Shown here: piece by piece, positions 29,075 through 49,084 of the stretch
How the letters are laid out: each line of letters opens with the position of its first letter
Numbering within the stretch: position 1 is the stretch's first letter
Assembly: GCA_934086145.1 (NCBI GenBank)
Contig: CAKOHV010000004.1
Location: forward strand, 2,354-66,353
From: an uncultured Bacilli bacterium
GTDB lineage: Bacteria; Bacillota_I; Bacilli_A; RF39; UBA660
Direction: 5' to 3'
Length of the DNA: 64,000 nt
The notes under the pieces: generated by a model
What the model was told of the DNA's origin: nothing
Database searches by the model: none
Seen by the model: the letters and a program-made list of their open reading frames with translations, nothing else
Position numbers and translations under genes: made by a program

Positions 29075-29155
29075 ACATAACTCCTACACTACTTTAAGAA
29101 AAGTTTATCATAAAGAAAGCAATTGAAAGCCAACAATTGCTATTTATCTTTACTA

Positions 29156-29363
29156 CATGAATTTTAACTTGAATTTCCGCTTTTGGGTTAAAAACAAAAA
29201 TAAGTCTTAAAAACAAAAATCCCCTATAATTTTAAAGAGATATATTTTATCCTTTTTATCCCAAAATATAGACTTATTTCCGTTTCATATTTTCTTTTTC
29301 GAAAATAAGTCTTGTAATTTTAAATATTTTAATAAAAAGTGAAATTTACGCTAAAAATTCACC
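29156..29363 (-). mobile_element. MITE-like TIR-bounded repeat, long copy (A, 208 nt, with 105-nt internal insertion)
   Basis: The reverse complement aligns by eye to 48836-48937, at about 87% over the left 62 nt and about 90% over the right 39 nt. The ends GGTGAATTTT...AAAATTCATG are degenerate versions of the TIR of copy B. Confidence 0.6.
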
Positions 29364-29372
29364 CTGTATTTC

Positions 29373-30980
29373 TTATCGTGGATAATATGTAATAGCAAAT
29401 TCAATAATATTAATAAATTCTCTAATAGAAAAAAATCCAATACAAATAATAGCCATAATTGAAACACATGCAAACACATATTTATTCTTAAAAATTTTTT
29501 TCAAAAGCAAATAAAATAATACATAAAAAGCCCAACCAAAATATAGACTATACAATATTAATCCATTTTCAGAAGTACCCCATCCTATTATCATCAATAT
29601 AATAATAGAAAATAATATCCATAATATAGAAACTTTAGAAATAAATTCTTTTCTATTAATTATAAAACTAAATAATAATACAACCAAAATAATAATACCA
29701 ACATAATTAATAGAATTGAAATTAATTAATTGATAAGTTGGATACCAACCATTATCCAACCACACAATATGCCCTGTATTTGGAATAAATAACCCCTTAA
29801 TAAAAGAAGTATATTGACAAACCTTATTAAAAAAAGAAATTTTTTGACCACCAAATTCAGATAATAAAGAAAGAAAATCAGTAATCGATAATAATTGCTG
29901 TAATTGACCACTTAATATAACTACAATCATAAAAGCAATAAAACATCTAAATACATTTCTTAAATACATTTTTAGATTATCATATTTACAAATAAATGGT
30001 AATAAAACACCAGAAGTTAATAAAGAACCTGTCGCTCCAATATATGTATAATTAATCTTAAAATAATTATTGTTAAATAAATATATACATAGCAATAAAT
30101 AAAATACAGCAATAACATATTGCTCAAGCATAAATCCAAAAATAATAAAAGGATATGAAACAAATAGCATCAAATAAAAGATAATTTTTTCTTTACCATC
30201 AATTTTCATCAATTTAGAAAGCATTATAGCAACCAAAGATAAAATAAAAAATTGCATAATGATCATAAATAATTCATATACCACATTATCCGGTATAAAA
30301 AAGAACAAATCATTCATAATATGAGGAATAATCGAAAATGGTAAAGCAAAAACACCGAATAACGGTTGTCTTATGTCATTTTCAAGACAAGCAACATTAA
30401 ACCAAGTATCGTAAAAAGACAAATAACTACTATCAGAAGTATATATAATATCGTAATTCATATGAGAACCACCATAATAAGAAACTCCAAACGCTGTTGT
30501 TTTATAATTGATAAAAAAAGATAGATAGAAAGAAATAACTAAAACTATAAGCATAAAATATTTATCGATCTTATCAATTTTATTATATTCTTTTAATAAT
30601 ATTGGTTTAATCTTATTAACAATATAATTAATAATAAAAAAGATAGAAGGTAAACATAATATAAAAAATAAAACTATTATTAAATTATAATATTTGTCTA
30701 AAAAACTAATACTACTGAATCTATCGCAAAATAAATCAAAAGATATTTTAAAATATTTTAAATATAATTTATCAATATATAAAGTTAAAATACTTGTATA
30801 TATTATTTTTTTTCTAGAAAGTTTATCAAACTTATATTTAAACAATAATATAGATAAAACAATAAAAATTGAAATCATAGTAAAAATAATATTTTTTAAC
30901 GAATAAGGAACTAAAACAATACTAAAAATCATCCAAGAAATAATAATCATTATTTTTAAAAAAATTTCTTTTATTTTCAT
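29373..30980 (-). CDS. Large polytopic membrane protein (possible GT-C-type glycosyltransferase or polymerase)
   Basis: About 535 aa and almost entirely hydrophobic helices. RBS GGAGG before ATG 30980. No soluble domain and no recognisable motif. Confidence 0.5.
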   Translation of the reverse strand: MKIKEIFLKIMIIISWMIFSIVLVPYSLKNIIFTMISIFIVLSILLFKYKFDKLSRKKIIYTSILTLYIDKLYLKYFKISFDLFCDRFSSISFLDKYYNLIIVLFFILCLPSIFFIINYIVNKIKPILLKEYNKIDKIDKYFMLIVLVISFYLSFFINYKTTAFGVSYYGGSHMNYDIIYTSDSSYLSFYDTWFNVACLENDIRQPLFGVFALPFSIIPHIMNDLFFFIPDNVVYELFMIIMQFFILSLVAIMLSKLMKIDGKEKIIFYLMLFVSYPFIIFGFMLEQYVIAVFYLLLCIYLFNNNYFKINYTYIGATGSLLTSGVLLPFICKYDNLKMYLRNVFRCFIAFMIVVILSGQLQQLLSITDFLSLLSEFGGQKISFFNKVCQYTSFIKGLFIPNTGHIVWLDNGWYPTYQLINFNSINYVGIIILVVLLFSFIINRKEFISKVSILWILFSIIILMIIGWGTSENGLILYSLYFGWAFYVLFYLLLKKIFKNKYVFACVSIMAIICIGFFSIREFINIIEFAITYYPR

Positions 30981-31021
30981 AACAAACCTCCGTAAAAAAA
31001 TCATACAATAATAAAAAGTTC

Positions 31022-32101
31022 TTAGCTTTTTATTATATCTAAAATTTTCTTTTTAATATTTTCATTATATAAAATATAATCAAATTTTTTTTTCAATTTA
31101 AAGCCATTATCTAAATAATTTTTCATCATTTCATAAACAGCCTCTGTCGAAAAATCACAGAACAAACCATTTTGGCCATCCAAATCTTCCCAATCGCTAA
31201 CTTTCGTAGATAAAATTACTTTATTCATAATCATCGCTTCCAAGAACACAACAGGAAATCCTTCGTAATCACTTGCTAGTAACACCGCATCACTTATCTT
31301 ATAGTAAGGATAAGGATTACTTTTACGACCTAAAAATAAAATATCATCACTTAAATTAGCATCTTTTACTTGTTCTTTATACATTTCTGTATCCGGTCCA
31401 TCGCCAATAAACAATATTTTAAACTTATATTTTTCTTTTTTTAATCTAGCACTAGCTTCTATAATTCGTGATAATTTCTTCTGGTGTTCATCATGTCTTC
31501 CAACATTAACAAATAAAGGTACACCATCTTGTTTAACATAATCAACTTTTTCCTGGGCTTTTGTTAAAATGTTTTCACCATCTATATAGTTATTGCATAC
31601 CATGGCTTTATCTTCTATTCCTTCATAATGGGCACAAACATCTCTTTTATTTTCCTGAGATACAAAAACAATATTTTTAAACTTTTTAGCCATAACACCA
31701 TCTAAGAAGTTAACCATTTTTTCTTTATACAAAATATAGTAATTGCCATGCATCCACAATGCATTATTACTAGAAGCTGCTAAAGCAAGATGAGCTCCTG
31801 GTATCGAATAAGTGCAAAAAGAGCAACTAAAATCATACTTATTTTTTAATTGTGACTGCCATTTTAATAACTTCAATCTATTATATATTTTTCTTAAAAT
31901 AACTATTTTATTATCACTAATCTTATATTCTAATACTTTTACTTCCTTAGGTATTTGTTCTAAAAATATTCCTTCTTTTTTTTCTAAAATTAACGTTACA
32001 TCATACTTTTTATAATCTAATCTATTTAATAAATTCACTAAAGCCTTTTCAATTCCTCCCAGCCCTAAACTATATGCTGTAAATAATAATTTTTTAGCCA
32101 T
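31022..32101 (-). CDS. Family 4 (GT-B) glycosyltransferase
   Basis: GLGGIEKALVNL N-terminus, then GDGPD...SDYEGFPVVFLEAMIMNKVILS (E-x7-E). Confidence 0.85.
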   Translation of the reverse strand: MAKKLLFTAYSLGLGGIEKALVNLLNRLDYKKYDVTLILEKKEGIFLEQIPKEVKVLEYKISDNKIVILRKIYNRLKLLKWQSQLKNKYDFSCSFCTYSIPGAHLALAASSNNALWMHGNYYILYKEKMVNFLDGVMAKKFKNIVFVSQENKRDVCAHYEGIEDKAMVCNNYIDGENILTKAQEKVDYVKQDGVPLFVNVGRHDEHQKKLSRIIEASARLKKEKYKFKILFIGDGPDTEMYKEQVKDANLSDDILFLGRKSNPYPYYKISDAVLLASDYEGFPVVFLEAMIMNKVILSTKVSDWEDLDGQNGLFCDFSTEAVYEMMKNYLDNGFKLKKKFDYILYNENIKKKILDIIKS

Positions 32102-32108
32102 AAAACAC

Positions 32109-33185
32109 CTATTTATTTATAATTTCTTTCATCAATTCTTGTTCATCTTTAACATCAGTTTCTAATACTTTTCCGTATTCACTATGTTCTAAGATTGTTT
32201 TAGCTAATAACTTAGAACAATCAACATCATGATACCATTCTAATTTTTTTATTTCATCCGGAACATAAGTTAAGTTAGTTGAATACATTCGATCAAATAA
32301 TCCTTCATCATATGCTTTTTGTAATTTATCAATTCCTGCTGAGAATAAAGCAAATGTTGCTATTAAAAATATTTTTTTAGCTCCTCTACTTTTTAATTCT
32401 TTAGCAACATCTAACATCGAGCCACCAGAAGCAACCATATCATCTATTACTAAAACTGTATAATCTTTAGGGTCTTTCCCTAAATAAACATGTTCTACTA
32501 CCGGATTCTTGCCATTAACTAATTTCGTTAAATCCCTTCTTTTATAGAAAAGTCCTACATCACAACGTAAAATTTCCGCATAATAACGAGCTCTTTCCAT
32601 AGCTCCCATATCAGGACTGATAGTTAACATTTTTTCTTTGTCTATCTCTTCATTTTTAAATATTTCTTTAATTATAGTTTCTGTAGCAAAAACATTTTCA
32701 AAGGGTAAATTAGGAATAGCATTCGAAACATTAGGATCATGACAATCAAAAGTTATAATATTATTAACTCCTAATTTTTCTAGTTCTTGCAAAGCTAAAG
32801 CACAATCCAATGATTCTCTTTCTTTTCTCCTATGTTGCCTTGATTCATAAAGTAACGGCATAATAACATTAACCTTTTGAAATTTTCCATTGGCAGCGCA
32901 AATAACCCGCTTAATATCTTGATAATGCTCATCAGGAGCCATATGGTGGATTGTTCCATGAAAATCATAAGTTATACTATAATTTCCAACATCAGACAAA
33001 ATATATAAATCTTTATCTCTAATTGATTCTTCTATATATAACTTACCTTCTCCATTATTAAAACGACTTGCTTTAACATTAACTAAAGAACTACCTTTTT
33101 TCTTAGTCATCTCATTTATATAAGTATCTACTTTTTCTCCTAAATCTTTACAATTTTCAAATGCAATTATTTTTAAATCACTCAT
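32109..33185 (-). CDS. prs: Ribose-phosphate diphosphokinase (PRPP synthetase), long paralog embedded in the glycan locus
   Basis: 358 aa with RBS GGGAGGAA. PRPP-binding loop VLVIDDMVASGGSM, PLLYESRQHRR flexible-loop region and ISPDMGAMERA. Confidence 0.8.
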   Translation of the reverse strand: MSDLKIIAFENCKDLGEKVDTYINEMTKKKGSSLVNVKASRFNNGEGKLYIEESIRDKDLYILSDVGNYSITYDFHGTIHHMAPDEHYQDIKRVICAANGKFQKVNVIMPLLYESRQHRRKERESLDCALALQELEKLGVNNIITFDCHDPNVSNAIPNLPFENVFATETIIKEIFKNEEIDKEKMLTISPDMGAMERARYYAEILRCDVGLFYKRRDLTKLVNGKNPVVEHVYLGKDPKDYTVLVIDDMVASGGSMLDVAKELKSRGAKKIFLIATFALFSAGIDKLQKAYDEGLFDRMYSTNLTYVPDEIKKLEWYHDVDCSKLLAKTILEHSEYGKVLETDVKDEQELMKEIINK

Positions 33186-33197
33186 AACAATTCCTCC

Positions 33198-34079
33198 CTA
33201 AAACCTGCTTGCTTTTATATACCCTGGTATAACCAATAAAGCAATTATAAAATTATATCTCTTAGCCCTTTTAATACATTCCCTCTTACTTAAACCACAT
33301 AAGTAACTAAACAATATATAATGTTTAATAAAATATAACTTTCTCTTAAACAAAGTATCTTTCTTTATATAAGTTAAACATTCATTAAAATATTCATAAT
33401 ATCCGTAAGGATATTTTTTAAATATTTTATTAATATTCTTTGAATATCCTTCTTCAACATATTCTCCATAAACTAAGTATTTATCTTTAAAAACCATTCC
33501 TTTATAAAATTGATCTAATTTATAATATAATCTAGCTTCCGTAACAAATTTTTCATTTTTACATACTTCGTAATAATATTTTTTTCTGACTTCGGTTTTA
33601 AAGACTATTGCCATATCAAAGTCATAACCATATTTATTATGTATATCAAATAAAGTAACAACTTTATTATTTAGTTCTTTTTTGGTATCTGTATTTTTTT
33701 TACCTAATTTTCTTTTATAAATTATTCCATAAATTTCATCATTATCTAAAGCTATAAAGTCTTCAGCAATTGTTTTTAAGGCATTATCAAGTAGATAATC
33801 ATCTGAATCAACTTCGATAATAGCATCTCCTGTTACGTATTGCATAGCATCATTTATTTCTTTTTGTTTGCCTTCATTTTCTTGGTAATGATAATCTATT
33901 TTAAAATTAACTTCTTTAATCCATTTTTTTACTTCTTTTTTAGTATTATCACTTGAGCCATCATCCATTATTATCCATTCAAAATCTTGAAATGTTTCGT
34001 AGTTTTTCTTTAAACTTTCAAACAACTTGGGTAATAATTTTTCTCTATTATATGTAGCCGTCAAAACTGATATTTTCAT
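33198..34079 (-). CDS. Family 2 glycosyltransferase
   Basis: ISVLTATYNREKLL...MDDGSSDNT...VDSDD. Confidence 0.8.
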   Translation of the reverse strand: MKISVLTATYNREKLLPKLFESLKKNYETFQDFEWIIMDDGSSDNTKKEVKKWIKEVNFKIDYHYQENEGKQKEINDAMQYVTGDAIIEVDSDDYLLDNALKTIAEDFIALDNDEIYGIIYKRKLGKKNTDTKKELNNKVVTLFDIHNKYGYDFDMAIVFKTEVRKKYYYEVCKNEKFVTEARLYYKLDQFYKGMVFKDKYLVYGEYVEEGYSKNINKIFKKYPYGYYEYFNECLTYIKKDTLFKRKLYFIKHYILFSYLCGLSKRECIKRAKRYNFIIALLVIPGYIKASRF

Positions 34080-34080
34080 C

Positions 34081-35184
34081 TTAGTCCCCCTCTATTACAT
34101 GTCCTATTTCTTCTAAGATTTTTTTATTAGTATCTTTGCTACTTTTTTTAGTCTTAGGTTGTTTTTCGATAATTGATTTTATTCCTTTATAGATGCCATT
34201 TTCATCATTTTTTAAGATTAATTTACTATCATAATCCATTAAAGTTTCACGAGCCGCACTATCTGTAATAATAATATATTTATTTAAAGCTCGTCCTTCA
34301 AGTAAAACCATCGGATATCCTTCATAATATGAAGCAAGTAAAAAATAATCAGCGGCTTTAATATAAGGGTATGGATTTTCTCTAGATCCTAATAAGATAA
34401 AGGTTTCCGTAATTCCTAATTCATCAATTTTATTTTGTAATTCTTCCTTTAATGGTCCATCTCCAACAATATAAATTCGATGTTTAAAGCCATCATCAAT
34501 TAACTTTTTATGAACATCAATCAATCGTCCTACTGCTTTTTGTTCTACTAAACGCGAAACTTGTACAAACGAAATCATATCATTCTTTATCTCTGAAGCG
34601 TCACCATCTAAAGCTTTTTGCAAAACCAATTCACAATCCAAATAATTATAAACAACTCTTTTCATAACTTTATTTCCTTTAAAATATCTTTGAAATTTAT
34701 TTAAATTATCTTGGGAAACAAAAATAAGTTCATCATATTTTAAGTAAGTTTCTTTATTAAGTTCTTGTTTTGCTTTAGCTCTCTTTCCGCTACCAAAGAC
34801 ATCCTCAATATCATTATGAACCCACGCCACTTTACGTGCATCTCCTGGGCAACTAAAAATCCATGTTATTGGTCCTTCTAAGAAAGCTATTTCAACATCA
34901 TATTTCCCCCTAATATATTTTTTATAAAGCATATTTCGTAAATTTGAATTAAAAAGTTGAAGAGATATTTTTAATCTAGTAACTTTATTTATTTCTTCAT
35001 ATTTTTGTTCATAAACTGAAACTAGTTTTACTCTTTTATCTAATTGTTTTTCAAATTCTCCATTACCATACAAAGTAAAAATAGTTATATCATATTTTTC
35101 TACTAATTTATTAGATAAATCTACTAATACTCGCTCTGCTCCTCCTAAATTTAAACCTGTAATACCAAAGACTATTTTTTTCAT
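34081..35184 (-). CDS. Family 4 (GT-B) glycosyltransferase
   Basis: GLNLGGAERVLVDL, then GDGP...SYYEGYPMVLLEGRALNKYII. The start overlaps the upstream stop (ATGA). Confidence 0.85.
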   Translation of the reverse strand: MKKIVFGITGLNLGGAERVLVDLSNKLVEKYDITIFTLYGNGEFEKQLDKRVKLVSVYEQKYEEINKVTRLKISLQLFNSNLRNMLYKKYIRGKYDVEIAFLEGPITWIFSCPGDARKVAWVHNDIEDVFGSGKRAKAKQELNKETYLKYDELIFVSQDNLNKFQRYFKGNKVMKRVVYNYLDCELVLQKALDGDASEIKNDMISFVQVSRLVEQKAVGRLIDVHKKLIDDGFKHRIYIVGDGPLKEELQNKIDELGITETFILLGSRENPYPYIKAADYFLLASYYEGYPMVLLEGRALNKYIIITDSAARETLMDYDSKLILKNDENGIYKGIKSIIEKQPKTKKSSKDTNKKILEEIGHVIEGD

Positions 35185-36575
35185 AAGTTTTCACCTCTTC
35201 CATCTTTACTTAAACTACTTATTATAATAGCTAATACCAACATACATGTACTTGAAAAGAAAACATAACCCGCAACCAGTGACAAACCAAAAGCTAAGAT
35301 AATCCCTGCTAAGTTCATTGCTAAGCATATATTAAATTCTTTAAAATGCCATGTTCGCAAATTCTTGATTATTAAATATATAAAAGGTCCAATATACAAA
35401 ATAAAACCAATTAAACCAAAGTTAAATAAGATTGACAGTAATTCCATTTCCATTATCATTTCTCCATAATGAACACTTCGTCCATTACCAAACAAGATAT
35501 AAAGGAAATTTTTTTGTTGTTTAATCAATGAAACATGATATATAAGTTGTTGATAACGATTATCATTTGCTTTTATTTTTTTTCGATTTGCATAATTATA
35601 TAAATCAAGATAAGCTTTTTTCATTTCTTCACTCATATAATCTTTTTTTAGTTCTAAATTTTTTATTTGCCAAACAATAACTGCTGTATCACCGGTTGTA
35701 AACCCCGGCTTATTCGTATTAACATCTATAATAGAAGCTTCTTCAGCAATATGTTTTCTTCTTTTTAAGGTTTCAGACCCCCCAACGCTTACCAATAGCA
35801 AAACTAATAAAACAAGACTAATTCCTAAAATAATTTTCTTAGGATTAACTTTTTTATCTTTAATAATCTTCAATATGAAAGAAAAACTACCATATAATAG
35901 TATTAACAATATAAAACCTAACATGCCAGTTCTTGTTCCTACTAAATAGACTAAATAAATTCCTAAAACAAGCCAACTTAAATACATTGCTCTTTTATCT
36001 TTCCTACTTATCTCATCAATACTTCCCATTAAATTACATAATAATAATAACAAAATCGTACTAATCGAATTACCCGAAAGAAAATAACTACGATACCCCA
36101 TCCCCTCGATATAAGTTGTAAAAGAAGTCTTTGTCAATATTGAAAAATATATTACTATTAAGTATTCAATTAACATTAAGAACATATACTTATTTATTTT
36201 AGTTAAATATCCTTTCTTTCTAAAATAATAAATAATAAATAATAAATAAATATTATAACTATAGTTAATTACGTATGATAATTCTTCTCCCAATGTTCCA
36301 TAACTTATTCCATAAAACAAAGATTTACTAATTATCAAGTGAACAATCCCATAACCAAGTAAAACTAATGATCCTAAAACCAGACCTTTTCGGTACTTTT
36401 TTTCTTTAATAAAAATATATAACAATAAAATAACCGGAATAATAGGTCGTAATATCATTGTTAAAGAAATATTTAGTTGAGGAACACATGTTTTAAGTAA
36501 ATAACTTCCAGCATCTAAAAGCGGACTCAGTAAGATAAATATATATATTAAATACTCTATCTTAAACTTTTTCAT
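35181..36575 (-). CDS. O-antigen ligase/polymerase-like (Wzy_C family) membrane protein
   Basis: 464 aa, at least 10 TM segments, with a large loop containing ...GNGRSVHYGEMIMEMELLSILFNFGLIGF..., resembling the Wzy_C motif. Confidence 0.6.
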   Translation of the reverse strand: MKKFKIEYLIYIFILLSPLLDAGSYLLKTCVPQLNISLTMILRPIIPVILLLYIFIKEKKYRKGLVLGSLVLLGYGIVHLIISKSLFYGISYGTLGEELSYVINYSYNIYLLFIIYYFRKKGYLTKINKYMFLMLIEYLIVIYFSILTKTSFTTYIEGMGYRSYFLSGNSISTILLLLLCNLMGSIDEISRKDKRAMYLSWLVLGIYLVYLVGTRTGMLGFILLILLYGSFSFILKIIKDKKVNPKKIILGISLVLLVLLLVSVGGSETLKRRKHIAEEASIIDVNTNKPGFTTGDTAVIVWQIKNLELKKDYMSEEMKKAYLDLYNYANRKKIKANDNRYQQLIYHVSLIKQQKNFLYILFGNGRSVHYGEMIMEMELLSILFNFGLIGFILYIGPFIYLIIKNLRTWHFKEFNICLAMNLAGIILAFGLSLVAGYVFFSSTCMLVLAIIISSLSKDGRGENL

Positions 36576-36580
36576 TTACA

Positions 36581-37522
36581 TTACCCCCTCGAATAAAATA
36601 TTTTAATATATAGTTTAGGAGATAATTTAAATAAAATTTTTTTAATTTTTCTAACAAAAGTATCTGTTAACATATACTTAGTTATATCTCTATTTCGTAA
36701 TTTTTCTAAATAATCATCTAGTATTTTGCCTTGCATTATCCGACATCTATTTATCATTCCATTAGAAACATAACTTTTAAATAACTTTCTAGTTTCAGCC
36801 CTTACCTTAATTTCATCAATCATTTTTAATAAATTATCATATTGGACAAGTGAATCATTATTCTTAGCAATAATTCTTTCTTCACTATTATTAGTCATAA
36901 TACTATTTTCTCTAACATAATAATTATATCCATTATATTCAATTGAAGTCACACTATCAGCATTTACGACTACAATTGGTGTTAAACCAAAATCTTCATG
37001 AACTCTTCCTGGTATATAGGTATATTGACACTTACGCCAATAAGCCAAACTATAGGCATACGTAACCGGGCTAACAAATAAATCATTTTTTAATAAAATT
37101 TTAAAAGCTTCTTCCCCATCTAAATTCTCAAAAACATCAGGTTCATTATAAGTAATTTCGGTTCCATCAATCATTTGAATCTGATACTTTACTAAATCAA
37201 CTTTCCCTTTATCTAAAACTTTTTTTACTTTTTCTAATAACTGTTCATTTATCGTATCATCGCTATCAACAAAGATAAAATAGTCACCTGTACACTTACT
37301 AATTCCAAAATTTCTTGCTACCGCAACACCTTTATTCGGACAATCAAAAAGTCTTATTCTTTTATCATCAAAGCTTTTAATAACCCCTAATGAACCATCT
37401 GTACTTCCATCATTAACAATAATTAATTCAAAATTATCATAGGTTTGCTTTAAGATACTTTCTATACATTTTTTCAAATATTTTTCAACATTATAAACAG
37501 GAACAATTACACTGAATTTCAT
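36581..37522 (-). CDS. Family 2 glycosyltransferase
   Basis: FSVIVPVYNVEKYL...VNDGSTDGS...VDSDD. Confidence 0.85.
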   Translation of the reverse strand: MKFSVIVPVYNVEKYLKKCIESILKQTYDNFELIIVNDGSTDGSLGVIKSFDDKRIRLFDCPNKGVAVARNFGISKCTGDYFIFVDSDDTINEQLLEKVKKVLDKGKVDLVKYQIQMIDGTEITYNEPDVFENLDGEEAFKILLKNDLFVSPVTYAYSLAYWRKCQYTYIPGRVHEDFGLTPIVVVNADSVTSIEYNGYNYYVRENSIMTNNSEERIIAKNNDSLVQYDNLLKMIDEIKVRAETRKLFKSYVSNGMINRCRIMQGKILDDYLEKLRNRDITKYMLTDTFVRKIKKILFKLSPKLYIKIFYSRG

Positions 37523-37579
37523 AAAGTATCACCCTACCATCATTTTATCATAATATTTTTTAAAGCAAAAGAAAAAAGC

Positions 37580-38650: not shown

Positions 38651-38717
38651 AAACATCACCTACTTACATTATACCCCATCTTATAGGCATATGACTATTT
38701 TTTAAAAAAAAGAAAAA

Positions 38718-40616: not shown

Positions 40617-40625
40617 AAACAACTC

Positions 40626-42629
40626 CTATAAATTTCCTTTTCCTAATATATGTTTTTGAATCTGTAATAAATCAACAATTGATATTTTACCATCATAATT
40701 TGTATCTCCGGCATACATTCTATAACCATCTAAATTTCCACGACCTAATATATGTTTCTGAATTTGTAATAAATCAACAATTGAAACATTTCCATCACCA
40801 TTCGTATCACCACGAACAGCAATAGTATAAACTAAAGAGTCTTGTGTTCCATTAACCGTAATTTTATCTCCTGTTACTAAATTTCCGGCATTTTTAGCAT
40901 TGCCATTAATATCAACAATTGTAGCACTTCCACCACTAGCTGTAACAGTATTTACAACTGTTCCAACTTGCATACCAGGTGAAATTCCATACATTACATC
41001 CTCATTAACACGTACTCCCATTTTATTTACTACATCAATTGCTTTAATTACTGGAACATCAGGAATAATACGTTTAACATAAACTATATATGTCTTCGTA
41101 TTACCATTTTCGGCGGTTACGCCAACTTGAACAACAGCATTATTATCTGCATCAAATGAAACTGTCCCAACGCCACTTACAACCGCCTTGCTATCTTCCG
41201 CTGTCGCGGATACGACAACTTCTGTTTTGTCAGTTGTTATATTGTAATTATACTCAACACGATCCCTATCAAATCCGGTAACAGTAACACCATCGATAAG
41301 TAAACTACTTAAATTATCATTACTACTTTTATCAACTGGCTGAACTATTTCATCACTAATCCCCATAAAGACTGGGATAACAAAGTTAAAATTAGAATTT
41401 AATAAATTACCTGCTTTATAAGCTTTATACATTGTGTTAGCTTCACTTGCTGGAGCATAAATATTAGTCATATATTGGTGAGAATAAAGTGGATAAGATG
41501 TTGTTGGCGAAATATTAAACTTTTGATAGTACCCCGTATTTTGTCCCTTCTTTATATAACCTTCACTTATAAATTCGGCACCACCAGAAATAGCTTTAGC
41601 TACCGTATTCCAAGGCCTTTGATAACTTAGATTTTCACATTTCGTAATATCATAATAAGGTAGACCATCTTCAGCAAAAGAAACACATGAAGCCCCCGCA
41701 ATAAACCCTGAAGCATAAGCCAAACCACGTTGAACTGTGTAAGGATAAATTGCATCAGCATAAGCCCCAATATTAAAGAAATTATAATACCCATCTAACG
41801 AATATCCATCAGCTGAATATCTATTATAAGTAGTAGTATAGGTTCCTGATACCGAAGCATAGGTCTGATTATTAGCTCCTTCTTGAATACTTCTTGATAA
41901 TATATGCAATGGATTTACCCCATTATTAGCCCCGGCTTCTTTAAATTCACCAAGATACTTCAACAAATTACCATTACCAACAACTTTTTTCATTGCTTCA
42001 TCATTAGATATATCTTTTGAACTTTGCAAATCCAAAAATTGAAAAATATGTTCTTCAAATAAACTATTTCGTGGATCCATAAATGACATAATAGTAGCAG
42101 CATTTACATAATAATAACTACCTTCTATAAAATTACCATTTAACCAATAATTGGAATTACTAGTTTGTAAAACTGTTTTACCTTCTTCCTCTAAGGATAC
42201 TTCATTTAAAGACTTACCAATTTGTTGAGCTTCAAAATTCCAATTAGGATACTTAGTATGTAAATAATAAAGATAAGGACAATAAGATTGATGAAACCCC
42301 TTCGTTACTAATTCATTACAATAGCTTTCATAATTATCGCCACTCGTCAACATTGCTTGATCAACATTTAAAATATAGGAAGAGGAAACAAAACCGATTT
42401 TACCATTATCAAAAGAAATTCTTGTTCCATAGGTTCCTCCTGCTTTATCATCTAAGACAACAACTCTTGTTCCATAAGCTAATTCTGTCATTGTAGCAGA
42501 ACCACGAAGAGAACTTTCATGAACAACTAAAGCATCAGCACTAATTATACCATTATAATTTTCAAGAGCATCAACAGTTAAAAACATCGTAAAAAACAGA
42601 ATAAGAATATAAGTAATTTTTTTAACCAT
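40626..42629 (-). CDS. Secreted peptidoglycan hydrolase: SH3b-like + glucosaminidase + cadherin-like beta-sandwich + C-terminal type I dockerin
   Basis: ATG 42629 with RBS AAGGAG, plus a signal peptide. The glucosaminidase core is NPLHILSRSIQEGANN...YNFFNIGAYAD. The cadherin-like domain is LSSLLIDGVTVTGFDRDRVEYNYNI.... Two dockerin repeats are present: GDTNGDGNVSIVDLLQIQKHILG and GDTNYDGKISIVDLLQIQKHILG (about 40629-40811). Confidence 0.75.
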   Translation of the reverse strand: MVKKITYILILFFTMFLTVDALENYNGIISADALVVHESSLRGSATMTELAYGTRVVVLDDKAGGTYGTRISFDNGKIGFVSSSYILNVDQAMLTSGDNYESYCNELVTKGFHQSYCPYLYYLHTKYPNWNFEAQQIGKSLNEVSLEEEGKTVLQTSNSNYWLNGNFIEGSYYYVNAATIMSFMDPRNSLFEEHIFQFLDLQSSKDISNDEAMKKVVGNGNLLKYLGEFKEAGANNGVNPLHILSRSIQEGANNQTYASVSGTYTTTYNRYSADGYSLDGYYNFFNIGAYADAIYPYTVQRGLAYASGFIAGASCVSFAEDGLPYYDITKCENLSYQRPWNTVAKAISGGAEFISEGYIKKGQNTGYYQKFNISPTTSYPLYSHQYMTNIYAPASEANTMYKAYKAGNLLNSNFNFVIPVFMGISDEIVQPVDKSSNDNLSSLLIDGVTVTGFDRDRVEYNYNITTDKTEVVVSATAEDSKAVVSGVGTVSFDADNNAVVQVGVTAENGNTKTYIVYVKRIIPDVPVIKAIDVVNKMGVRVNEDVMYGISPGMQVGTVVNTVTASGGSATIVDINGNAKNAGNLVTGDKITVNGTQDSLVYTIAVRGDTNGDGNVSIVDLLQIQKHILGRGNLDGYRMYAGDTNYDGKISIVDLLQIQKHILGKGNL

Positions 42630-42819
42630 CTTATCACTCCTTACTACCATCCATAACCATTATAGCATAACCTATATCAGATAACAACGTACCAAAATGT
42701 CTATAACTGTAAAGCAGCAACATCTTTTAAGTAACAATTGTTATAGAAAATAAATTATGATATGATATATACAATAATGTTAATGAGGAGTGGTTACTAC
42801 GAAAATTCTAACAAAAAAG

Positions 42820-44931
42820 ATGAAAAAAATAAGTAAAATACAAAAATTCTTTTATTTTGTAACAATCATTGCTTACCTAGCAACCTTTATCTACTTTATT
42901 TATGGTATTCTCCATTTAAAAGGTATTGAAACAGCTATTAGAATTATTGCAGTTATTATATTTGCAATTTGGTTTGCCGTTTATTCTCTAGCCGGATTAA
43001 TATGTATGCTTTCCAAAAAGCAAAAAACCTTTATTTTTTTAACCATCATAACTATTATTTTCTGTCCTATCTTTAGTGTTTCATCATACTACATTAACAA
43101 AGTATATGGGGCTTTAGAAAATATTAATCGGGAAAAAATAACTTATGCATCTAATATGATTGCTTTAAAAGAAACAAAGTTTAATAGCAGTTCAGTCATA
43201 GGAATGATCGAATCAGAAGACGATATTGAAGGAAATAACTTAGCTAAAAAAATAATTAAAAACAATAGTTTATCTAACAAAATTGAAACTTATGAAGATT
43301 ATCAATCAATGCTAAAAGATTTATACAACAAAAAAATTGATGCTTGCTTTGTATCTAGTAACTACGCCATCTTATTTAGTCAAGAAGATGCCTTTCCTAC
43401 TATCGCTGATGATGTCAAAGTTCTTTATGAATATAGTGAAGAACAAGTAAATAAAGATGCTGAAGTATTAAAAACTAATACTAAAAAAGACTTAACAGAA
43501 CCATTTACAATGTTAATAATGGGTGTTGATTCTGAAAAAAATGGTTTAACAGCTAATCAAGCTTTCAATGGTGACACCTTAATCATGGTTACCTTTAATC
43601 CTAATACCTTAACGGCTACCATGTTTAGTATCCCAAGAGATATGTACGTTCCAATTGCTTGTAACAATAATCGTTATGCTAAAATAAACTCATCAGCTGC
43701 TTATGGTTCATCTTGCGTTATAAATACAATTAAACAATTAACTAAAATAGATATTGACTACTATGTTAAGATGAATTTCCAAGGAGTTGTCGATTTAGTA
43801 GAAGCCTTAGGAGGCATAACCGTCGACGTTGAAAAACCAGACTTTGCTTACGATAACAAGCACATTGGTCAAGTATGTGAGCAAAACTCAAAAAGACAAT
43901 TTGGTTCTAACCTAGTATGTATGAAAACTGGTGTTCAACAATTAAATGGTGAACAAGCCCTTGCCTATGCAAGATGCCGTCACCTATATGCTGTTTCCGA
44001 TATTGCCAGAAATAAGCATCAACAAGATATTATTGAAGCTATGGCACAAAAAGTTAAAACTTTAAGAAGTGTTAAAGATTTCGAAAATATCTTAACCGCT
44101 GTTTCTAACAACTTAGAAACTAATATGACAACTGAACAAATCCTTTCGATATATAACGTTGCAAAAGATATGCTTCAAAATACCGATTCATCTTCATCAT
44201 TGTCAATCAAAAAAACATATCTTGCCTACTATAATTTACCAATTTACTTACCTTCATCAGGTTCTTATACTAGTGCACTAGGTTACTATCCTCAATCATT
44301 AGAAGCAATTGTCAAAGCAATGAAGGTTAATTTAGGTTTAGAAACTGAAAAACCAGTAAAGACATTTAAAATTAGTTACAATGAAGATTATACAACCCCT
44401 TTAATCGGTCAAGGATTAACAGGTGGAACCAAATTGGAACGTATGCCAAACTTCATTGGTTACGATCGCTATTATGTAAGTGATTGGTGCTCTAAGAATG
44501 GCCTTTCATGTACATTCAAAGACCAAGATAGTTCTAAAGAAGTCGGCGAAGTCGTTGACCAAGCTGTTCATGAAGGGGTCTTACTAAAATCAATATCATC
44601 AGCTACTTTCTACGTTAGTAATGGTCGTTACCAGTCATTGATTGAGGACGATGATAATGACGATGACGATGAAGACAATAACTCGAATAAAAATAATAAT
44701 TCCAATAGTTCAAACAATAATTCTAGCAATAATTCTAACAGCAACAAAAACAATGATAAAAATAACGACAAAGATAACAGCAAAGATAATGACAAAAATG
44801 ATGATAAAAATAACGAAAAGAATAATGACAAAAACAATGATTCTTCAAGTGATTCCAACAAAAATGATAACAAAACAGAAGATAAAAAAGATGATAAAAA
44901 AGATGACACATCATCCGAAACTAACGAATAA
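42820..44931 (+). CDS. LCP (LytR-CpsA-Psr) family ligase with PASTA-like domain and Asn/Asp/Lys-rich low-complexity tail
   Basis: LCP core TMLIMGVDS...GDTLIMVTFNP...FSIPRDMYV...GEQALAYARCRH...DIARNKHQQ. The start is uncertain: the ORF-track GTG at 42790 overlaps the GAGGAG box, and ATG 42820 gives a typical MKK...TM N-terminus. Confidence 0.8.
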   Translation: MKKISKIQKFFYFVTIIAYLATFIYFIYGILHLKGIETAIRIIAVIIFAIWFAVYSLAGLICMLSKKQKTFIFLTIITIIFCPIFSVSSYYINKVYGALENINREKITYASNMIALKETKFNSSSVIGMIESEDDIEGNNLAKKIIKNNSLSNKIETYEDYQSMLKDLYNKKIDACFVSSNYAILFSQEDAFPTIADDVKVLYEYSEEQVNKDAEVLKTNTKKDLTEPFTMLIMGVDSEKNGLTANQAFNGDTLIMVTFNPNTLTATMFSIPRDMYVPIACNNNRYAKINSSAAYGSSCVINTIKQLTKIDIDYYVKMNFQGVVDLVEALGGITVDVEKPDFAYDNKHIGQVCEQNSKRQFGSNLVCMKTGVQQLNGEQALAYARCRHLYAVSDIARNKHQQDIIEAMAQKVKTLRSVKDFENILTAVSNNLETNMTTEQILSIYNVAKDMLQNTDSSSSLSIKKTYLAYYNLPIYLPSSGSYTSALGYYPQSLEAIVKAMKVNLGLETEKPVKTFKISYNEDYTTPLIGQGLTGGTKLERMPNFIGYDRYYVSDWCSKNGLSCTFKDQDSSKEVGEVVDQAVHEGVLLKSISSATFYVSNGRYQSLIEDDDNDDDDEDNNSNKNNNSNSSNNNSSNNSNSNKNNDKNNDKDNSKDNDKNDDKNNEKNNDKNNDSSSDSNKNDNKTEDKKDDKKDDTSSETNE

Positions 44932-45009
44932 ATTATTAAAAGTACCACCAAGGTACTTTTATTATGAATAAAATATAAATATAATAATATAAGAAATGAG
45001 GTTCAAAAA

Positions 45010-45864
45010 GTGCATAACGAAGTATTTTATACAAAAAAAATAAACAAAGATATAACACTAGCTGTTATTAGTGATATTCATTACTATCCTAAATTCAATA
45101 CAAACATATTTAGAAGATTAGAAAAACAAGTTCAAAAAAGACAACCAAATTATATTTGTGTAGTTGGTGATATCTTAGATGAATCAAAATTTACAGAAAT
45201 AGATAACTTAATTACTTTCTTTACCAATTTAGCCAAAATTTCCCCAGTCATAGTCGTTCTTGGTAATCATGATGAAAAAACTGGAGCAATGTTTAAATGG
45301 CAATCCAAAAACAATTCTGTTTTAACTAAAGCTTTAAATAAAATAGATAACCTTCATCTTCTTGAAGATGAAATATGGCAAGATAATAATATAACTTTTT
45401 ATGGTTTTAACTTATCATTTAATTACTATGAGAAAAGCGATGAAGCATATGAAGTTTTTGTTGAAGAAACCAAGCAATTAAAATGTCCTCTTCAAAAAGA
45501 AACGTATAATATCACCCTATTTCATAGTCCAGCTAATATCTACCAATTTATTGCTAAAAACCCTAATCATCCCCTTAATCAAACTGATTTAATATTGTCA
45601 GGTCACATGCATAATGGTTGTTTACCATTTATAATAGCTCATCCTCTTAACAAACTTTTCAAAACAAACGTCGGTTTAATTTCCCCCCAAAAAACATTAT
45701 TTCCAAAATTAGCTCAAGGAAAAGTAACTTCTGAAGTAAAAGATGGTTACATTTATGAAGGTGTAACTAAATTAAGTCATTCCACTAAGATGTTCCATGC
45801 TTTTGATTTTATCTTTCAAAAGAAAGTCGAATTTTTAACTATTAAACCTAACAATAAAGAATAA
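45010..45864 (+). CDS. Calcineurin-like metallophosphoesterase
   Basis: GTG start with RBS GAGG. Motifs LAVISDIHY, VVGDILD, LGNHDE and SGHMHNG. Confidence 0.8.
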   Translation: MHNEVFYTKKINKDITLAVISDIHYYPKFNTNIFRRLEKQVQKRQPNYICVVGDILDESKFTEIDNLITFFTNLAKISPVIVVLGNHDEKTGAMFKWQSKNNSVLTKALNKIDNLHLLEDEIWQDNNITFYGFNLSFNYYEKSDEAYEVFVEETKQLKCPLQKETYNITLFHSPANIYQFIAKNPNHPLNQTDLILSGHMHNGCLPFIIAHPLNKLFKTNVGLISPQKTLFPKLAQGKVTSEVKDGYIYEGVTKLSHSTKMFHAFDFIFQKKVEFLTIKPNNKE

Positions 45865-45895
45865 AAATTCTTATAAAATATCACTAAAAAAGCAA

Positions 45896-45934
45896 AAAAG
45901 AGAAAAGTAAATGTAAAATACTTTTCTCTTTTTG
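45896..45934. terminator. Bidirectional intrinsic terminator between convergent genes
   Basis: AAAAGAGAAAAGTA-aatgtaaaa-TACTTTTCTCTTTT. Confidence 0.6.
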
Positions 45935-45959
45935 TTCACCTTACTATCTCTTATCTAAA

Positions 45960-46670
45960 TTAATCTTCATCATAAGTTGGTTTCAAAGTAGGTTGATAAT
46001 CTACAACACTCCATCTTGCCCCATCTTCTTTTACGACAACAACAGAAGCTTCATCATCATATCCCATATCAGAAACATAACTTATTTTTAACTTAACTAA
46101 ATAACCATCTTTTTTTTCTTCGTCAACTAAATAAGTTGTTTTTTCTGTTGAAACAACCTCAACACTACTGACTTCTGGTAAAGTTTGTTTTCTATCTCCA
46201 TAAGTATCATCTATTAAAGTTGAATACAAAGTATCCATTACCTTTTTGCTATACATTTCTACTTTATCTTTATAAAAATACTCTGTTCCTCCAACATCAT
46301 ATTTATTAAGTTTAGTACTCATCGTATACAAATCGATTACAAATAACTTAGCTACTTGGGTACTATATGCTTCTTCATCAACCTTAGACTCTTTCAATAT
46401 TTTTTTCAATTTTTCAAATTCACTTTTATAATATTTACTATCTTTATCGCTTATAGAATAACCATAATCATCTAGGCTATCGACAACCTTTACCGTTACG
46501 ACATTCTTAGGTGTATTATTATTCTTTTTTAATTTAAAATTATAAAATAACAAGCCACCAACAATTAATATTACTAATAGCAATAATATCCATAATTTAT
46601 TTTTCTTCTTTTTCTTTTTTAACTTCGTTTCGTCTTTAATATCTCTTTTTATTTCTTTTTCTTTAGCCAT
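45960..46670 (-). CDS. Membrane-anchored hypothetical protein translationally coupled to the LtaS-family gene
   Basis: K-rich N-terminus, one TM (LWILLLLVILIVGGLLF) and an extracytoplasmic domain of unknown fold. ATG 46670 lies 3 nt upstream of the LtaS stop (ATGGCTAA). Confidence 0.55.
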   Translation of the reverse strand: MAKEKEIKRDIKDETKLKKKKKKNKLWILLLLVILIVGGLLFYNFKLKKNNNTPKNVVTVKVVDSLDDYGYSISDKDSKYYKSEFEKLKKILKESKVDEEAYSTQVAKLFVIDLYTMSTKLNKYDVGGTEYFYKDKVEMYSKKVMDTLYSTLIDDTYGDRKQTLPEVSSVEVVSTEKTTYLVDEEKKDGYLVKLKISYVSDMGYDDEASVVVVKEDGARWSVVDYQPTLKPTYDED

Positions 46671-48759
46671 TACCATCACCATTTCCTATGTTTGAATTAC
46701 CACTTCTTATATTAGCCCCCTCTTTTTTTATTAAATCATGAACAATAATATTATTTGAAACTGTTAGTATTTTATCAGCATATTCTTTTAATGAACTAAC
46801 ATAGTTTTCATCTATTATTGCATTTTCTTTTAAAATTAAATAATTATTAGATGTATTACTATAATAAATTGTATTTGTAACAAAATTACCACTAGGGAAA
46901 ACTACAACATTATCTTCTTTTATATCATAGATATCATGTCCAAGTGCATAAGGGTTACTAAATCCTAACATATTACCTAGTGTTGGCATAACATCATACA
47001 TTCCCATAACATTGTTATTTACTAATTTGATTTTTTTAGCCACATTTTTATTTTTAGTCCAAATAATCAAAGGAGTTCGACGATTGATTTCATGAGCATA
47101 ATAGTCATAATTTACATAGTTAGGATTTCCTTCTTCGTAAACTTCTCCCGTTTCTGTATTATAATTATAATAATATTGATACTCACTTTTATCTAATCTG
47201 GCATCATGATCCCCATAGAAAACAAAGACTGTATTATTGTAATATTCACTATTTTTTACATATTCTACAAATTGTCCTAATGACATGTCAGCATAATGAG
47301 CACTAATAAAATAGTTACCTAATTTAGTTCCCTTTAAGTAATTATCTGTTTTTACTTCCTCTTCTTGAGTCTGTTCATTTTTTACCTTGTATGTATTAGT
47401 TAATTCTAGTTTACCAAAATTATCATAAATTTCCGGATTCCAATCTGTAGCTGCAAATGGTGAATGGTTGGATAATTGAATTAAAGTTCCCATATAATTC
47501 GTATGTTCTTGCTCTACTTTTTCAAGTTTTTCTTGCATTTGTTCAAAGAACATTGAATCATTTAAGCCAAGCCCAACACGATCTGTTTTTTCATCATACT
47601 TAAATGTTTCTTTAAAAAACATATCCTGATATCCTAATCTTGGATGCATATTATTTCTATTCCACATTGAAGAACTATTAGCATGAGCACTAAAGGTATA
47701 ATAGCCTTTTTGTGATAATAGTTTTGGAATTGTAACATAATCTCTCTTATAGTATCCAACGAAAACTGTTCCACTACTTGAAGGCATTAATGAGGTATTT
47801 AAAGTAAACTCTGTATCACTACTTGTTCCAACACTAATTTGTGGATAGAAGTTACTAAAATACATTCCTTCTTTTGATAATTTATTTATTGTTGGTGTTA
47901 TTTCAACACCATTTACTTTAGTATCAATCAAAAAATTTTGAATACTTTCCATATGAACAAAAATAACATTCATACCTTCTAAGACATTAGTATACTTATT
48001 ATCATGCTTAGATTCATTTTCTTTAAACTTATTAGCATAAAATTCTCTGAAGTTCTTAGCAGCTTCATCATATCCAAATAAAGAATTTATTTTAGGAGAT
48101 AAACTTTGAACCAAATCATTTCCTTGATATAAAATTATACCAAAACGTTGGACAATGTACTCCCTATTCCATTGTTTTACTAGTCTACTAGCATCAGTTC
48201 CCGTAATATTTACTAAAGTAAATGATAAAATTATGAAACCTCCTAATAAGGTTCCCACAAACATTTTCTTCCCCTTTTCAATACGACCTACAAAATTATA
48301 ATAATTACTAATTTTAAGTAGACGATGAATATAGTAGTAAAAAAAGGGAAAAAAGACATAAATAAAGTCAATAAATCTAAATTTTTCAATTAATGAATCC
48401 CCAACTTCTCCTACTAAGCCAAGTTCTGCTAGTAAGCTGAAAGAAGCAAACGAGGTGTAAAAAACATAATAAATAGAATTTACAACACACATTAAAGTTA
48501 CTACTAAAAGCCAAAACATATAATATTTAAATTGTTTATCAGCTTTAAATAAGTATCCAAAAGCTCCTATGATTACTAATAAAGCTAAATCACAAATAAA
48601 AGGTTCATAAGCAAATGTATTACGTAACGTAAATTTTCTTAATAAGACAGTCTCTATCATTGCAAATAGTACAAATGTTAAAAATAACTTATTTGTAGAA
48701 AAATACTGTATAATAAATTTACGTATTTTTTTTAAAATATTTGATATTTTATTTTTCAT
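46663..48759 (-). CDS. ltaS: LTA synthase (LtaS) family sulfatase-fold polyglycerolphosphate transferase
   Basis: Five N-terminal TM helices plus an extracellular sulfatase-like domain (NVIFVHMESIQNF...GTSSDTEF...SAHANSS...FYGDHD). Start moved to ATG 48759. Confidence 0.85.
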   Translation of the reverse strand: MKNKISNILKKIRKFIIQYFSTNKLFLTFVLFAMIETVLLRKFTLRNTFAYEPFICDLALLVIIGAFGYLFKADKQFKYYMFWLLVVTLMCVVNSIYYVFYTSFASFSLLAELGLVGEVGDSLIEKFRFIDFIYVFFPFFYYYIHRLLKISNYYNFVGRIEKGKKMFVGTLLGGFIILSFTLVNITGTDASRLVKQWNREYIVQRFGIILYQGNDLVQSLSPKINSLFGYDEAAKNFREFYANKFKENESKHDNKYTNVLEGMNVIFVHMESIQNFLIDTKVNGVEITPTINKLSKEGMYFSNFYPQISVGTSSDTEFTLNTSLMPSSSGTVFVGYYKRDYVTIPKLLSQKGYYTFSAHANSSSMWNRNNMHPRLGYQDMFFKETFKYDEKTDRVGLGLNDSMFFEQMQEKLEKVEQEHTNYMGTLIQLSNHSPFAATDWNPEIYDNFGKLELTNTYKVKNEQTQEEEVKTDNYLKGTKLGNYFISAHYADMSLGQFVEYVKNSEYYNNTVFVFYGDHDARLDKSEYQYYYNYNTETGEVYEEGNPNYVNYDYYAHEINRRTPLIIWTKNKNVAKKIKLVNNNVMGMYDVMPTLGNMLGFSNPYALGHDIYDIKEDNVVVFPSGNFVTNTIYYSNTSNNYLILKENAIIDENYVSSLKEYADKILTVSNNIIVHDLIKKEGANIRSGNSNIGNGDGNG

Positions 48760-48835
48760 TTCATCCCTTCTTACAGAACATATTATAACATATATCAACA
48801 TTTTGTTACAACATTGTAATTTTAGATGATTTTTT

Positions 48836-48937
48836 CGTGAATTTTTAGACTAAATTCCATTTTTTATGAAAATATTTAAAATACAAGACTTATTTCCGTT
48901 TTTAACCTAAAAGCGGAAATCCAAATTAAAATTCACG
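48836..48937 (+). mobile_element. MITE-like TIR-bounded repeat, short copy (B, 102 nt)
   Basis: Begins CGTGAATTTT and ends AAAATTCACG, a perfect 10-bp terminal inverted repeat. It is flanked on both sides by TTTTTT. An internal 12-bp hairpin lies at 48892-48920. It is homologous to 29156-29363 on the opposite strand. Confidence 0.6.
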
Positions 48938-48953
48938 TTTTTTAAATTTATAC

Positions 48954-49075: not shown

Positions 49076-49084
49076 TTTGAAATC

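Follow-up and report, generated by a model that had tools for sequence, protein, structure and literature searches.

A pair of inverted repeats from the envelope-biogenesis locus of an uncultured gut Bacilli bacterium as relics of an IS30-family insertion sequence

Insertion sequences (IS) of the IS30 family transpose by a copy-out-paste-in route with a circular or dimer intermediate, typically duplicate 2 bp of target DNA and are frequently accompanied by IS-associated deletions (PMC5821093). IS1630 of Mycoplasma fermentans is flanked by duplications of 16, 23, 25 and 26 bp, and by none at some copies (PMC3317919). Set against the typical 2 bp, duplications of 16-26 bp indicate that duplication length varies within the IS30 family. 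According to the title of Calcutt et al. 1999, IS1630 targets and duplicates inverted repeats. A second group of relevant systems comprises the MITEs, such as RUP of Streptococcus pneumoniae, the Correia elements of Neisseria and the Tn3-derived TIMEs, which are short, non-coding, bounded by terminal inverted repeats (TIRs) and have the same ends as an autonomous element. A shallow full-text literature search returned no description of IS30-derived MITEs.

Here we describe two related sequences, copy A and copy B, that stand in inverted orientation in a 64-kb stretch of genomic DNA from an uncultured Bacilli bacterium (the window). We propose, with a probability of about 0.9, that copies A and B are non-autonomous and arose independently, by internal deletion, from a 1528-bp IS30-family IS of uncultured low-GC gut Bacilli. 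Both copies resemble MITEs in the features listed above, and copy B, in addition, is flanked by a short repeat and is missing from its site in relatives. They differ from the described MITEs in that the parent is an IS30-family IS and in that no single short form has been amplified among the loci examined.

The parent IS and its two shortened copies

In repeat detection, no inverted repeats of the window are longer than the two formed by this pair. A 22-nt and a 31-nt pattern, one per half, match at copies A and B only within the window when up to three mismatches are allowed, with no match expected by chance (100 shuffles), and no third related sequence is present in the window. The coordinates and sequences that an earlier note had given for both copies are confirmed, the homology falling into two blocks of 89% identity each. 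Strand + for copy B keeps that note's orientation; IS convention puts the lost transposase gene on the - strand.

29155-29208 and 48885-48938: inverted repeat I1, 54 nt, 89% identity
29317-29362 and 48837-48882: inverted repeat I2, 46 nt, 89% identity
48836-48937, + strand: copy B, 102 nt, transposase-less IS30-family derivative (blastn against the full IS)
48836-48898, + strand: transposase-distal IS end in copy B, IS nt 1-63, with TIR core CGTGAATTTT (blastn)
48883-48937, + strand: transposase-proximal IS end in copy B, IS nt 1474-1528, with hairpin ATTTCCG...CGGAAAT and TIR core AAAATTCACG (blastn)
48885-48894, + strand: AAGACTTATT at the deletion junction of copy B, fusion of the motifs at IS nt 50 and nt 1476, 1426-bp deletion
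29156-29363, - strand: copy A, 208 nt, transposase-less derivative of the same IS lineage (blastn against the IS)
29190-29362, - strand: transposase-distal IS end in copy A, IS nt 2-176 (79% identity, blastn)
29199-29208, - strand: AAGACTTATT at the deletion junction of copy A, fusion of the motifs at IS nt 158 and nt 1476, 1318-bp deletion

A 20-nt pattern of the right half matched three contig ends of the MAG Bacilli bacterium SUG1421 as the terminus of a longer element. A complete 1528-bp IS with both ends is present on locus L003, and a second complete copy, 95.9% identical, occupies 661-2188 of L018. An IS with matching ends is found on L003, L018 and L108-L117, the hosts of which are related gut Bacilli MAGs and metagenomes; these full-length elements belong to related loci, none of them tied to the window's own species. 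A genome scan with the left-end pattern yielded 52 loci, mostly chance AT-rich matches, from which blastn against the IS retained seven new ones besides L003, while a metagenome scan yielded four loci, one by chance, and a viral-contig scan yielded none. Genome matches in Spartobacteria and Myroides were rejected as chance.

The single ORF of the IS is a 374-aa transposase gene. In L003, the ORF scores 90.7 bits against the NCBIfam model NF033563 for IS30 family transposases (E 1.2e-25, model positions 12-265 of 267), for which the cut-off is 80 bits, and it carries an N-terminal Pfam HTH_38 domain. Homologues of the transposase number 1168 proteins at E<=1e-10, and the identical protein occurs on about 20 contigs with differing flanks. 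The termini of the IS are imperfect inverted repeats of ~30 bp with the perfect 10-bp core CGTGAATTTT. By passing the IS30 equivalog model, and by its N-terminal HTH_38 domain, single ORF and imperfect TIRs, the parent resembles IS30 and ISApl1. However, its transposase, although alignable over the full length, shares only 25-33% identity with the annotated IS30 transposases of plasmids (tblastn), its 1528 bp exceed the sizes of IS30-type ISMhom-1 (1.26 kb) and IS1630 (1,178-1,384 bp), and the window holds transposase-less derivatives only.

The parent also departs from the 2 bp typical of the family in its target duplication. Exact 15-bp duplications flank three full-length copies and two further elements: L056, a related IS, and L061, a derivative of 397 bp in Clostridium sp. 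CAG:914 that has no transposase. Several of the IS target sites are partly palindromic by eye. By description, IS1630 and ISMhom-1 are similar in being IS30-type elements of low-GC, Mollicutes-like hosts with unusually long duplications. A further likeness to IS1630, with its reported targeting of inverted repeats, lies in the partly palindromic targets seen here by eye and in the position of copy A beside a terminator-like hairpin, but the IS1630 duplications are variable in length, whereas that of the parent IS is fixed at 15 bp at the five sites.

The full IS contains the motif AAGACTTATT at nt 50(+), 85(-), 158(+) and 1476(+). Copy B joins nt 50 to nt 1476 and copy A joins nt 158 to nt 1476, which indicates one direct-repeat deletion each, with the transposase gene gone and both ends kept; for copy B the arithmetic is exact (1528-1426 = 102). 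Copy B starts with CGTGAATTTT and ends with AAAATTCACG. The perfect 10-bp repeat reported earlier at these termini is real and forms the core of the imperfect ~30-bp TIR. The core is preserved at 10/10 positions in copy B and is degenerate in copy A, the termini of which are GGTGAATTTT and AAAATTCATG. In copy A, IS nt 1476-1528 of the transposase-proximal end correspond to 29208-29156 at 89-92% identity (blastn), and the distal end includes a hairpin with a 13-bp stem, AAGACTTATTTTCG...CGGAAATAAGTCT, that the full IS has as well. The 105-106 nt by which copy A exceeds copy B, described in the earlier note as a 105-nt insertion, map to the IS end and are therefore parental sequence that was retained in copy A and lost from copy B. 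Copy B is 95-98% identical to the IS ends of L003 and 98% identical to those of L018 (blastn). Since copy A is only 79-92% identical to the IS, it looks older than copy B (~98%), and this very unequal divergence argues for separate arrivals.

Insertion sites of the two copies

Copy B lies ahead of tRNA-Gly, 63 nt upstream of it, and copy A ahead of pilin-like/DUF285 reading frames, a gene context already described for both. The features surrounding the two copies are as follows.

48830-48835, no strand: TTTTTT, left copy of a candidate 6-bp target-site duplication of copy B (sequence, L052 empty site)
48938-48943, no strand: TTTTTT, right copy of the candidate target-site duplication of copy B (sequence, L052 empty site)
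49001-49075, + strand: tRNA-Gly(GCC), ancestral neighbour of the LtaS-type gene, outside the element (Rfam match)
48954-48982, + strand: promoter-like site of tRNA-Gly, TTGAAT-17-TATCAT, outside copy B (the stretch aligns with relatives without the element)
48782-48811, - strand: promoter-like site of the LtaS-type gene, TTGTAA-18-TATAAT, outside copy B (the stretch aligns with relatives without the element)
29118-29141, - strand: terminator-like hairpin, 15 nt past copy A (sequence)

In the closest relative, UMGS1573, and in other relatives, tRNA-Gly adjoins LtaS minus exactly the 102 nt of copy B. Empty sites are thus found in relatives; specifically, the orthologous site in L052, L022 and L023 lacks exactly window positions 48835-48937. 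L052, whose LtaS-type protein is 92% identical to that of the window, has one A/T run at the empty site, and the spacer in the window exceeds that of L052 by 107 nt, the 102 nt of copy B and ~5-6 nt more. tRNA-Gly stands beside LtaS in about 18 relatives, none of which has IS-related sequence there. The TTTTTT on either side of copy B, noticed earlier as a possible target-site duplication, is present as described; this T6 in an AT-rich spacer is all that flanks copy B, as against the 15-bp duplication of the parent IS. Taken together, comparison with the relatives' sequences identifies copy B as a true insertion in the ancestral spacer of the divergent LtaS-type and tRNA-Gly genes, between their promoter-like sites. 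The earlier suggestion of a non-autonomous mobile element is accordingly supported by the IS30-family ends of both copies, by the full-length IS at many sites and by the empty site of copy B.

On the other side of the block, the hairpin 15 nt beyond copy A places this copy between the stop codon of a 535-aa membrane-protein gene (29373) and the hairpin. The flanks of copy A contain no target duplication. No empty site for copy A was found, the relatives of the adjacent 535-aa gene in a protein search being either of the same species (99%) or at most 48% identical; searches for related loci of this gene and of the 634-aa mid-block protein found none. Contigs with a 99% variant of the 535-aa protein still carry copy A, which is present in all same-species contigs, including those of a strain 98.6% identical across the region, and both copies are fixed within the species in the contigs examined.

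The deletions may have preceded insertion, as in true MITE transposition, or may have taken place in situ, following the insertion of a full-length IS, and we give the two routes roughly equal weight. At 102 and 208 nt, with TIRs, no transposase gene and an autonomous partner with the same ends in related loci, the copies have the traits of MITEs. Each short form has been seen at one site, and the three known short forms (copy A, copy B and L061) have three different junctions; no second site of copy A or copy B occurs in ~850 kb of retrieved loci or in ~9 kb of further sequence from the same genome. These findings therefore do not demonstrate amplification into a MITE family, and decay in place would account equally well for a separate deletion junction in each short copy. 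Two Logan assemblies (L010 and L011) have contig breaks inside copy B; considered as a hint of multiple copies, these breaks have no interpretable branch point and were not relied on. [quoted passage not shown] The terminal bases of copy A are mutated, and this copy is probably inert.

Inversion, structured-RNA and promoter readings

The copies bracket, in inverted orientation, 19.5 kb of glycosyltransferase, LytR-family and LtaS-type genes, and the earlier note had raised the inversion of this segment. If the pair recombined, or formed the two ends of a composite transposon, the 29.4-48.8 kb envelope block could invert or move as a unit. IS copies are known rearrangement substrates, and such events, or assembly chimeras, could explain the mixed left and right flanks on contigs with the full-length IS. 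We nevertheless regard this reading as highly improbable. All same-species contigs that span a junction (L006 and L007 for copy B; L012-L015, L106 and L107 for copy A) have the arrangement of the window, and the inverted arrangement appears in none of them. The homologous blocks are only 46-54 nt long at 89% identity, which makes a poor substrate for homologous recombination. Additionally, the best tblastn match of the cognate transposase in the window has only E = 1.1, so no remnant of it is seen there, and no transposase, integrase or recombinase domain was detected by Pfam scans and precomputed annotations covering most ORFs, several ORFs being without a Pfam hit or unscanned; the absence of such genes from the window, as first reported, stands. 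A composite transposon is rejected on three grounds: the outer flanks have no common duplication; the copies differ in age, as seen in their unequal divergence from the IS (79-92% for copy A against 98% for copy B); and the LtaS-tRNA-Gly adjacency is ancestral, copy B having entered alone. A variant in which the relic pair acts as a switch, with rare recombination, or a cognate IS30-family transposase acting at intact outer or inner ends, flipping or mobilising the block and so varying the cell surface, would be just as improbable.

The second reading, in which the copies are a dispersed structured RNA, a small RNA or a cis-regulatory module that is transcribed either upstream of the next gene (tRNA-Gly, or the pilin-like/DUF285 frames) or together with it, likewise has very little probability in our view. 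The + strand of copy B does fold better than its shuffles (-19.3 kcal/mol, z = -4.2), one stem position changes from C to U between copies B and A, which would preserve G-U pairing on that strand, and each copy is co-oriented with the next gene. However, the same sequences terminate a transposase-bearing IS, and copy B is absent from relatives in which the promoter-like stretches of both neighbours nevertheless align. The fold of copy B is composed of the TIR stem and the IS-end hairpin and is therefore a consequence of IS anatomy. At gathering score, the only Rfam match in the window is tRNA-Gly, and permissive Rfam searches of the two copy regions gave best E values of 0.66 and 0.81, far under gathering scores; the dispersed structured-RNA module proposed earlier thus finds no Rfam match. 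Co-orientation with the downstream genes has no demonstrated meaning, and the promoter-like sites of the neighbours of copy B lie outside it.

An ordinary duplicated promoter or intergenic region of no mobile origin, compatible with the presence of just two copies in the window, both intergenic, can be dismissed as next to impossible, already contradicted by the blastn mapping, the empty site and the IS target duplications: both halves are termini of an IS30-family element that is found, with target duplications, at numerous unrelated loci, the orthologous spacer of relatives has no copy B, and the promoter-like sites are outside the element.

Meaning for the organism and the IS30 family

Copies A and B are ordinary mobile-DNA relics, neither a new RNA nor a switch, because both repeats are remnants of an IS that is intact in related gut bacteria. 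Nothing points to a role in regulation or recombination, and we have no evidence of either repeat serving as a phase-variation switch. The practical value is for annotation, in that two unusual repeats among the envelope-biogenesis genes of an uncultured gut bacterium now have an explanation.

We consider it possible, at somewhat less than even odds, that the parent represents an IS30 subgroup not described before, in which the target duplication is always 15 bp long and miniature derivatives are moved in trans; this reading is more likely, if less striking, than a 19.5-kb switch. As a by-product, the analysis characterises an abundant IS30-family element of gut Bacilli, including its ends, its 15-bp duplication and an internal motif that predisposes it to loss of the transposase gene. 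In metagenomes, elements of this type break up the assemblies, and many contigs terminate within them. Relics of the elements can be used as markers of strain history, and copy B separates the window's species from its nearest sequenced relative.

Origin of the inverted repeat pair

Copy B (48836-48937) has the ends CGTGAATTTT...AAAATTCACG with TTTTTT on either side; its reverse complement, in diverged form, is copy A (29156-29363). The repeat search returns this pair as the longest inverted repeats in the window, with two homologous blocks.

Homologous blocks of copies A and B
29155-29208 / 48885-48938, inverted: block 1, 54 nt, 89% identity
29317-29362 / 48837-48882, inverted: block 2, 46 nt, 89% identity

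In a window scan allowing 3 mismatches, patterns from each half match only at A and B, and 100 shuffles give an expectation of no chance matches. Both the repeat search and these scans bear out the two diverged inverted copies described in the earlier note. Additionally, copy B contains one instance of a 14-nt motif, AAGACTTATTTYCG, and copy A contains three, one of these inverted.

A 20-nt right-half pattern, scanned across the genome set with one genome per species, matched one MAG, Bacilli bacterium SUG1421, on three of its contigs and always at a contig end. There the 53 nt common with copy B form the end of a longer sequence, identical in the three contigs, which leads into an ORF beginning MKEWKHLTFEQRKTISSG. 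One contig, L003, carries the complete element of 1528 bp, with an opposite end that corresponds to copy B's left half. Specifically, its 374-aa ORF reaches 90.7 bits with the NCBIfam model NF033563, 'IS30 family transposase', above the cut-off of 80, contains a Pfam HTH_38 domain and aligns end to end with annotated plasmid IS30 transposases at 25-33% identity; judged by this transposase, the parent element belongs to the IS30 family. A second complete copy, in the related locus L018, is 95.9% identical, and the same IS terminus closes further contigs. The parent IS is widespread. The identical transposase is found on ~20 contigs with many different flanks, and a protein search returned 1168 transposase relatives at E<=1e-10, most of them on 1.2-2.5 kb contigs, which is the usual picture of a collapsed repeat.

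Both copies map to the ends of this element, termed distal and proximal relative to the transposase gene.

Ends of the parent IS kept in each copy (blastn)
Copy B: distal IS nt 1-63, proximal IS nt 1474-1528; 98% identity to the L018 copy
Copy A: distal IS nt 2-176, proximal IS nt 1476-1528; 79% identity distal, 89-92% proximal

Because both copies map to IS ends, the extra 105-106 nt of copy A are not the 105-nt insertion previously supposed; blastn places them in the IS end lost from copy B, as IS sequence that includes a 13-bp-stem hairpin also present in the full IS.

Positions of the motif AAGACTTATT in the full IS
nt 50, + strand
nt 85, - strand
nt 158, + strand
nt 1476, + strand

Joining nt 50 to nt 1476 removes 1426 bp and leaves the 102 nt of copy B, and joining nt 158 to nt 1476 removes 1318 bp and leaves ~210 nt, as in copy A. 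The motif positions and the junction arithmetic show that each copy arose by one deletion between short direct repeats, and in each case this single deletion took out the transposase gene while sparing both ends. Clostridium sp. CAG:914 (L061) has a third short derivative, 397 bp long and independent of these two, which comes from a related IS and has a different junction. The earlier note had proposed, as one of its readings, a non-autonomous mobile element, and had described a 10-bp TIR. The former stands, both copies being IS30-family IS ends without the transposase gene; of the latter, a perfect 10-bp core stands, within an actual repeat that is imperfect and ~30 bp long.

Insertion sites and target duplications

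The orthologous site of copy B was examined through a search with the LtaS-type protein, which returned 35 loci. Among them are about 18 in which tRNA-Gly is the immediate upstream neighbour of the LtaS-type gene, and none of these ~18 has IS-related sequence between the two genes. In the closest relative, UMGS1573 (L052; LtaS-type protein 92% identical), the alignment skips exactly window 48835-48937, and the spacer is 107 nt shorter than the window's, a difference equal to the 102-nt element together with roughly one A/T run. Such element-free orthologous spacers in relatives show that copy B is a true insertion. For copy A, comparison of the flanks revealed no target duplication, and a protein search with the adjacent 535-aa gene, made to find an empty site, yields only same-species copies or distant homologues. 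Both copies are fixed within the species, being unchanged in every contig with an identical LtaS-type or glycosyltransferase protein; a strain 98.6% identical in this region keeps copy A with a few substitutions.

The T6 repeat flanking copy B is far shorter than the usual 15 bp of the parent IS, the target duplication of which is exactly 15 bp at five sites.

Target duplications of 15 bp
L108: ACTTTCTTAAAAAGA
L110: AAAAAAAGATAGATA
L002/L003: GATTTTGATTAAAAA
L056 (related IS): AAAGTTAATTAAATA
L061 (397-bp derivative): TTTCTTCAACAATTG

These targets are AT-rich, and some appear partly palindromic by eye. The IS30 family is usually described with a target duplication of 2-3 bp. The 15-bp duplication is unusual for the family, departing from the 2 bp called typical of it (PMC5821093), and by description the parent IS resembles in its long duplication the IS30-type element IS1630 of Mycoplasma fermentans, with duplications of 16-26 bp and some copies without any (PMC3317919). 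The L018 and L111/L116 copies have no duplication, perhaps because copies recombined or because the assembly is chimeric. One flank is common to L108, L109 and L110, and the other differs. Across L108, L109, L110, L113, L114 and L117, all with an identical transposase, the same left flank is seen with varied right flanks, and vice versa; these mixed flanks come either from chimeric assembly across a repeat or from genuine recombination among IS copies.

No second site of either short form was found in the fetched loci or in an extra ~9 kb of the same genome, so that in-place decay of two full-length insertions and MITE transposition are equally possible.

Arrangement and gene context

The data lend no support to an inversion of the 29.4-48.8 kb block, a possibility raised in the earlier note, or to a 19.5-kb composite unit: wherever a same-species contig crosses one of the junctions it has the window arrangement, and LtaS next to tRNA-Gly is the ancestral order. 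In addition, A and B diverge from the IS to very different extents and therefore arrived at separate times, and the homologous blocks are short (~50 nt at 89%). Since assemblies display the majority arrangement only, a rare inversion between A and B keeps a small probability.

Features beside the two copies
48811->48782, - strand: promoter-like site of the LtaS-type gene, outside copy B
48954-48982, + strand: promoter-like site of tRNA-Gly, outside copy B
29141->29118, - strand: terminator-like hairpin near copy A

Copy B is located between the two promoter-like sites, and both promoter-like stretches align with relatives that have no copy B. Copy A falls between the terminator-like hairpin and the 535-aa gene's stop codon (29373), and from this position is probably carried in the 3' untranslated region of that gene. 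A dispersed structured-RNA module, also suggested previously, finds no backing, as no Rfam family matches either copy and the favourable fold of copy B is the TIR stem plus the IS-end hairpin. The window contains no remnant of the cognate transposase, and in agreement with the earlier observation, no transposase, integrase or recombinase domain is found among the window ORFs screened or pre-annotated.

Strain variation and nature of the copies

Downstream of copy A, a short pilin-like reading frame (MMKCSKAKGFILV, then stop) is cut by TAG at window 29033-29035 (- strand). The 98.6%-identical strain (L106 5907-6068) has GAG (Glu) at this position, and its 53-aa ORF (MMKCSKAKGVILVETMVVIAFL...) is intact; the window's frame is interrupted by a nonsense mutation of this Glu codon, not by a frameshift.

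In two same-species assemblies (L008 1-309, L009 1-200), with LtaS-type protein and copy B identical to the window's, the sequence departs wholly from the window (49076-49310) right after the tRNA-Gly 3' end, at ~49077, and has no match elsewhere in the window. What follows the tRNA thus differs between strains, the pattern one expects of an integration hot spot. A DDE_Tnp_1 (IS4-like) transposase gene lies ~2.4 kb past the window's left end in one same-species strain (L119 369-1619), and two further same-species contigs stop near this position. Within the LytR_cpsA_psr-family gene (42790-44931), 12-nt tandem repeats rich in AAT/GAT/AAA at 44732-44900 would encode a low-complexity Asn/Asp/Lys tract, possibly variable in length. 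Upstream of the glycosyltransferase cluster, gene calls differ between the same-species contig L014 (1-2115; 235, 105 and 375 aa) and window ~35181-37522 (a 313-aa GT2 and a 464-aa O-antigen-ligase-like gene), which suggests strain variation or disruption inside the polysaccharide locus.

Like MITEs, A and B are small, TIR-bounded and non-coding, with ends in common with an autonomous element. Taken together, the two copies fit the structural definition of MITEs and are non-autonomous mobile-element derivatives.
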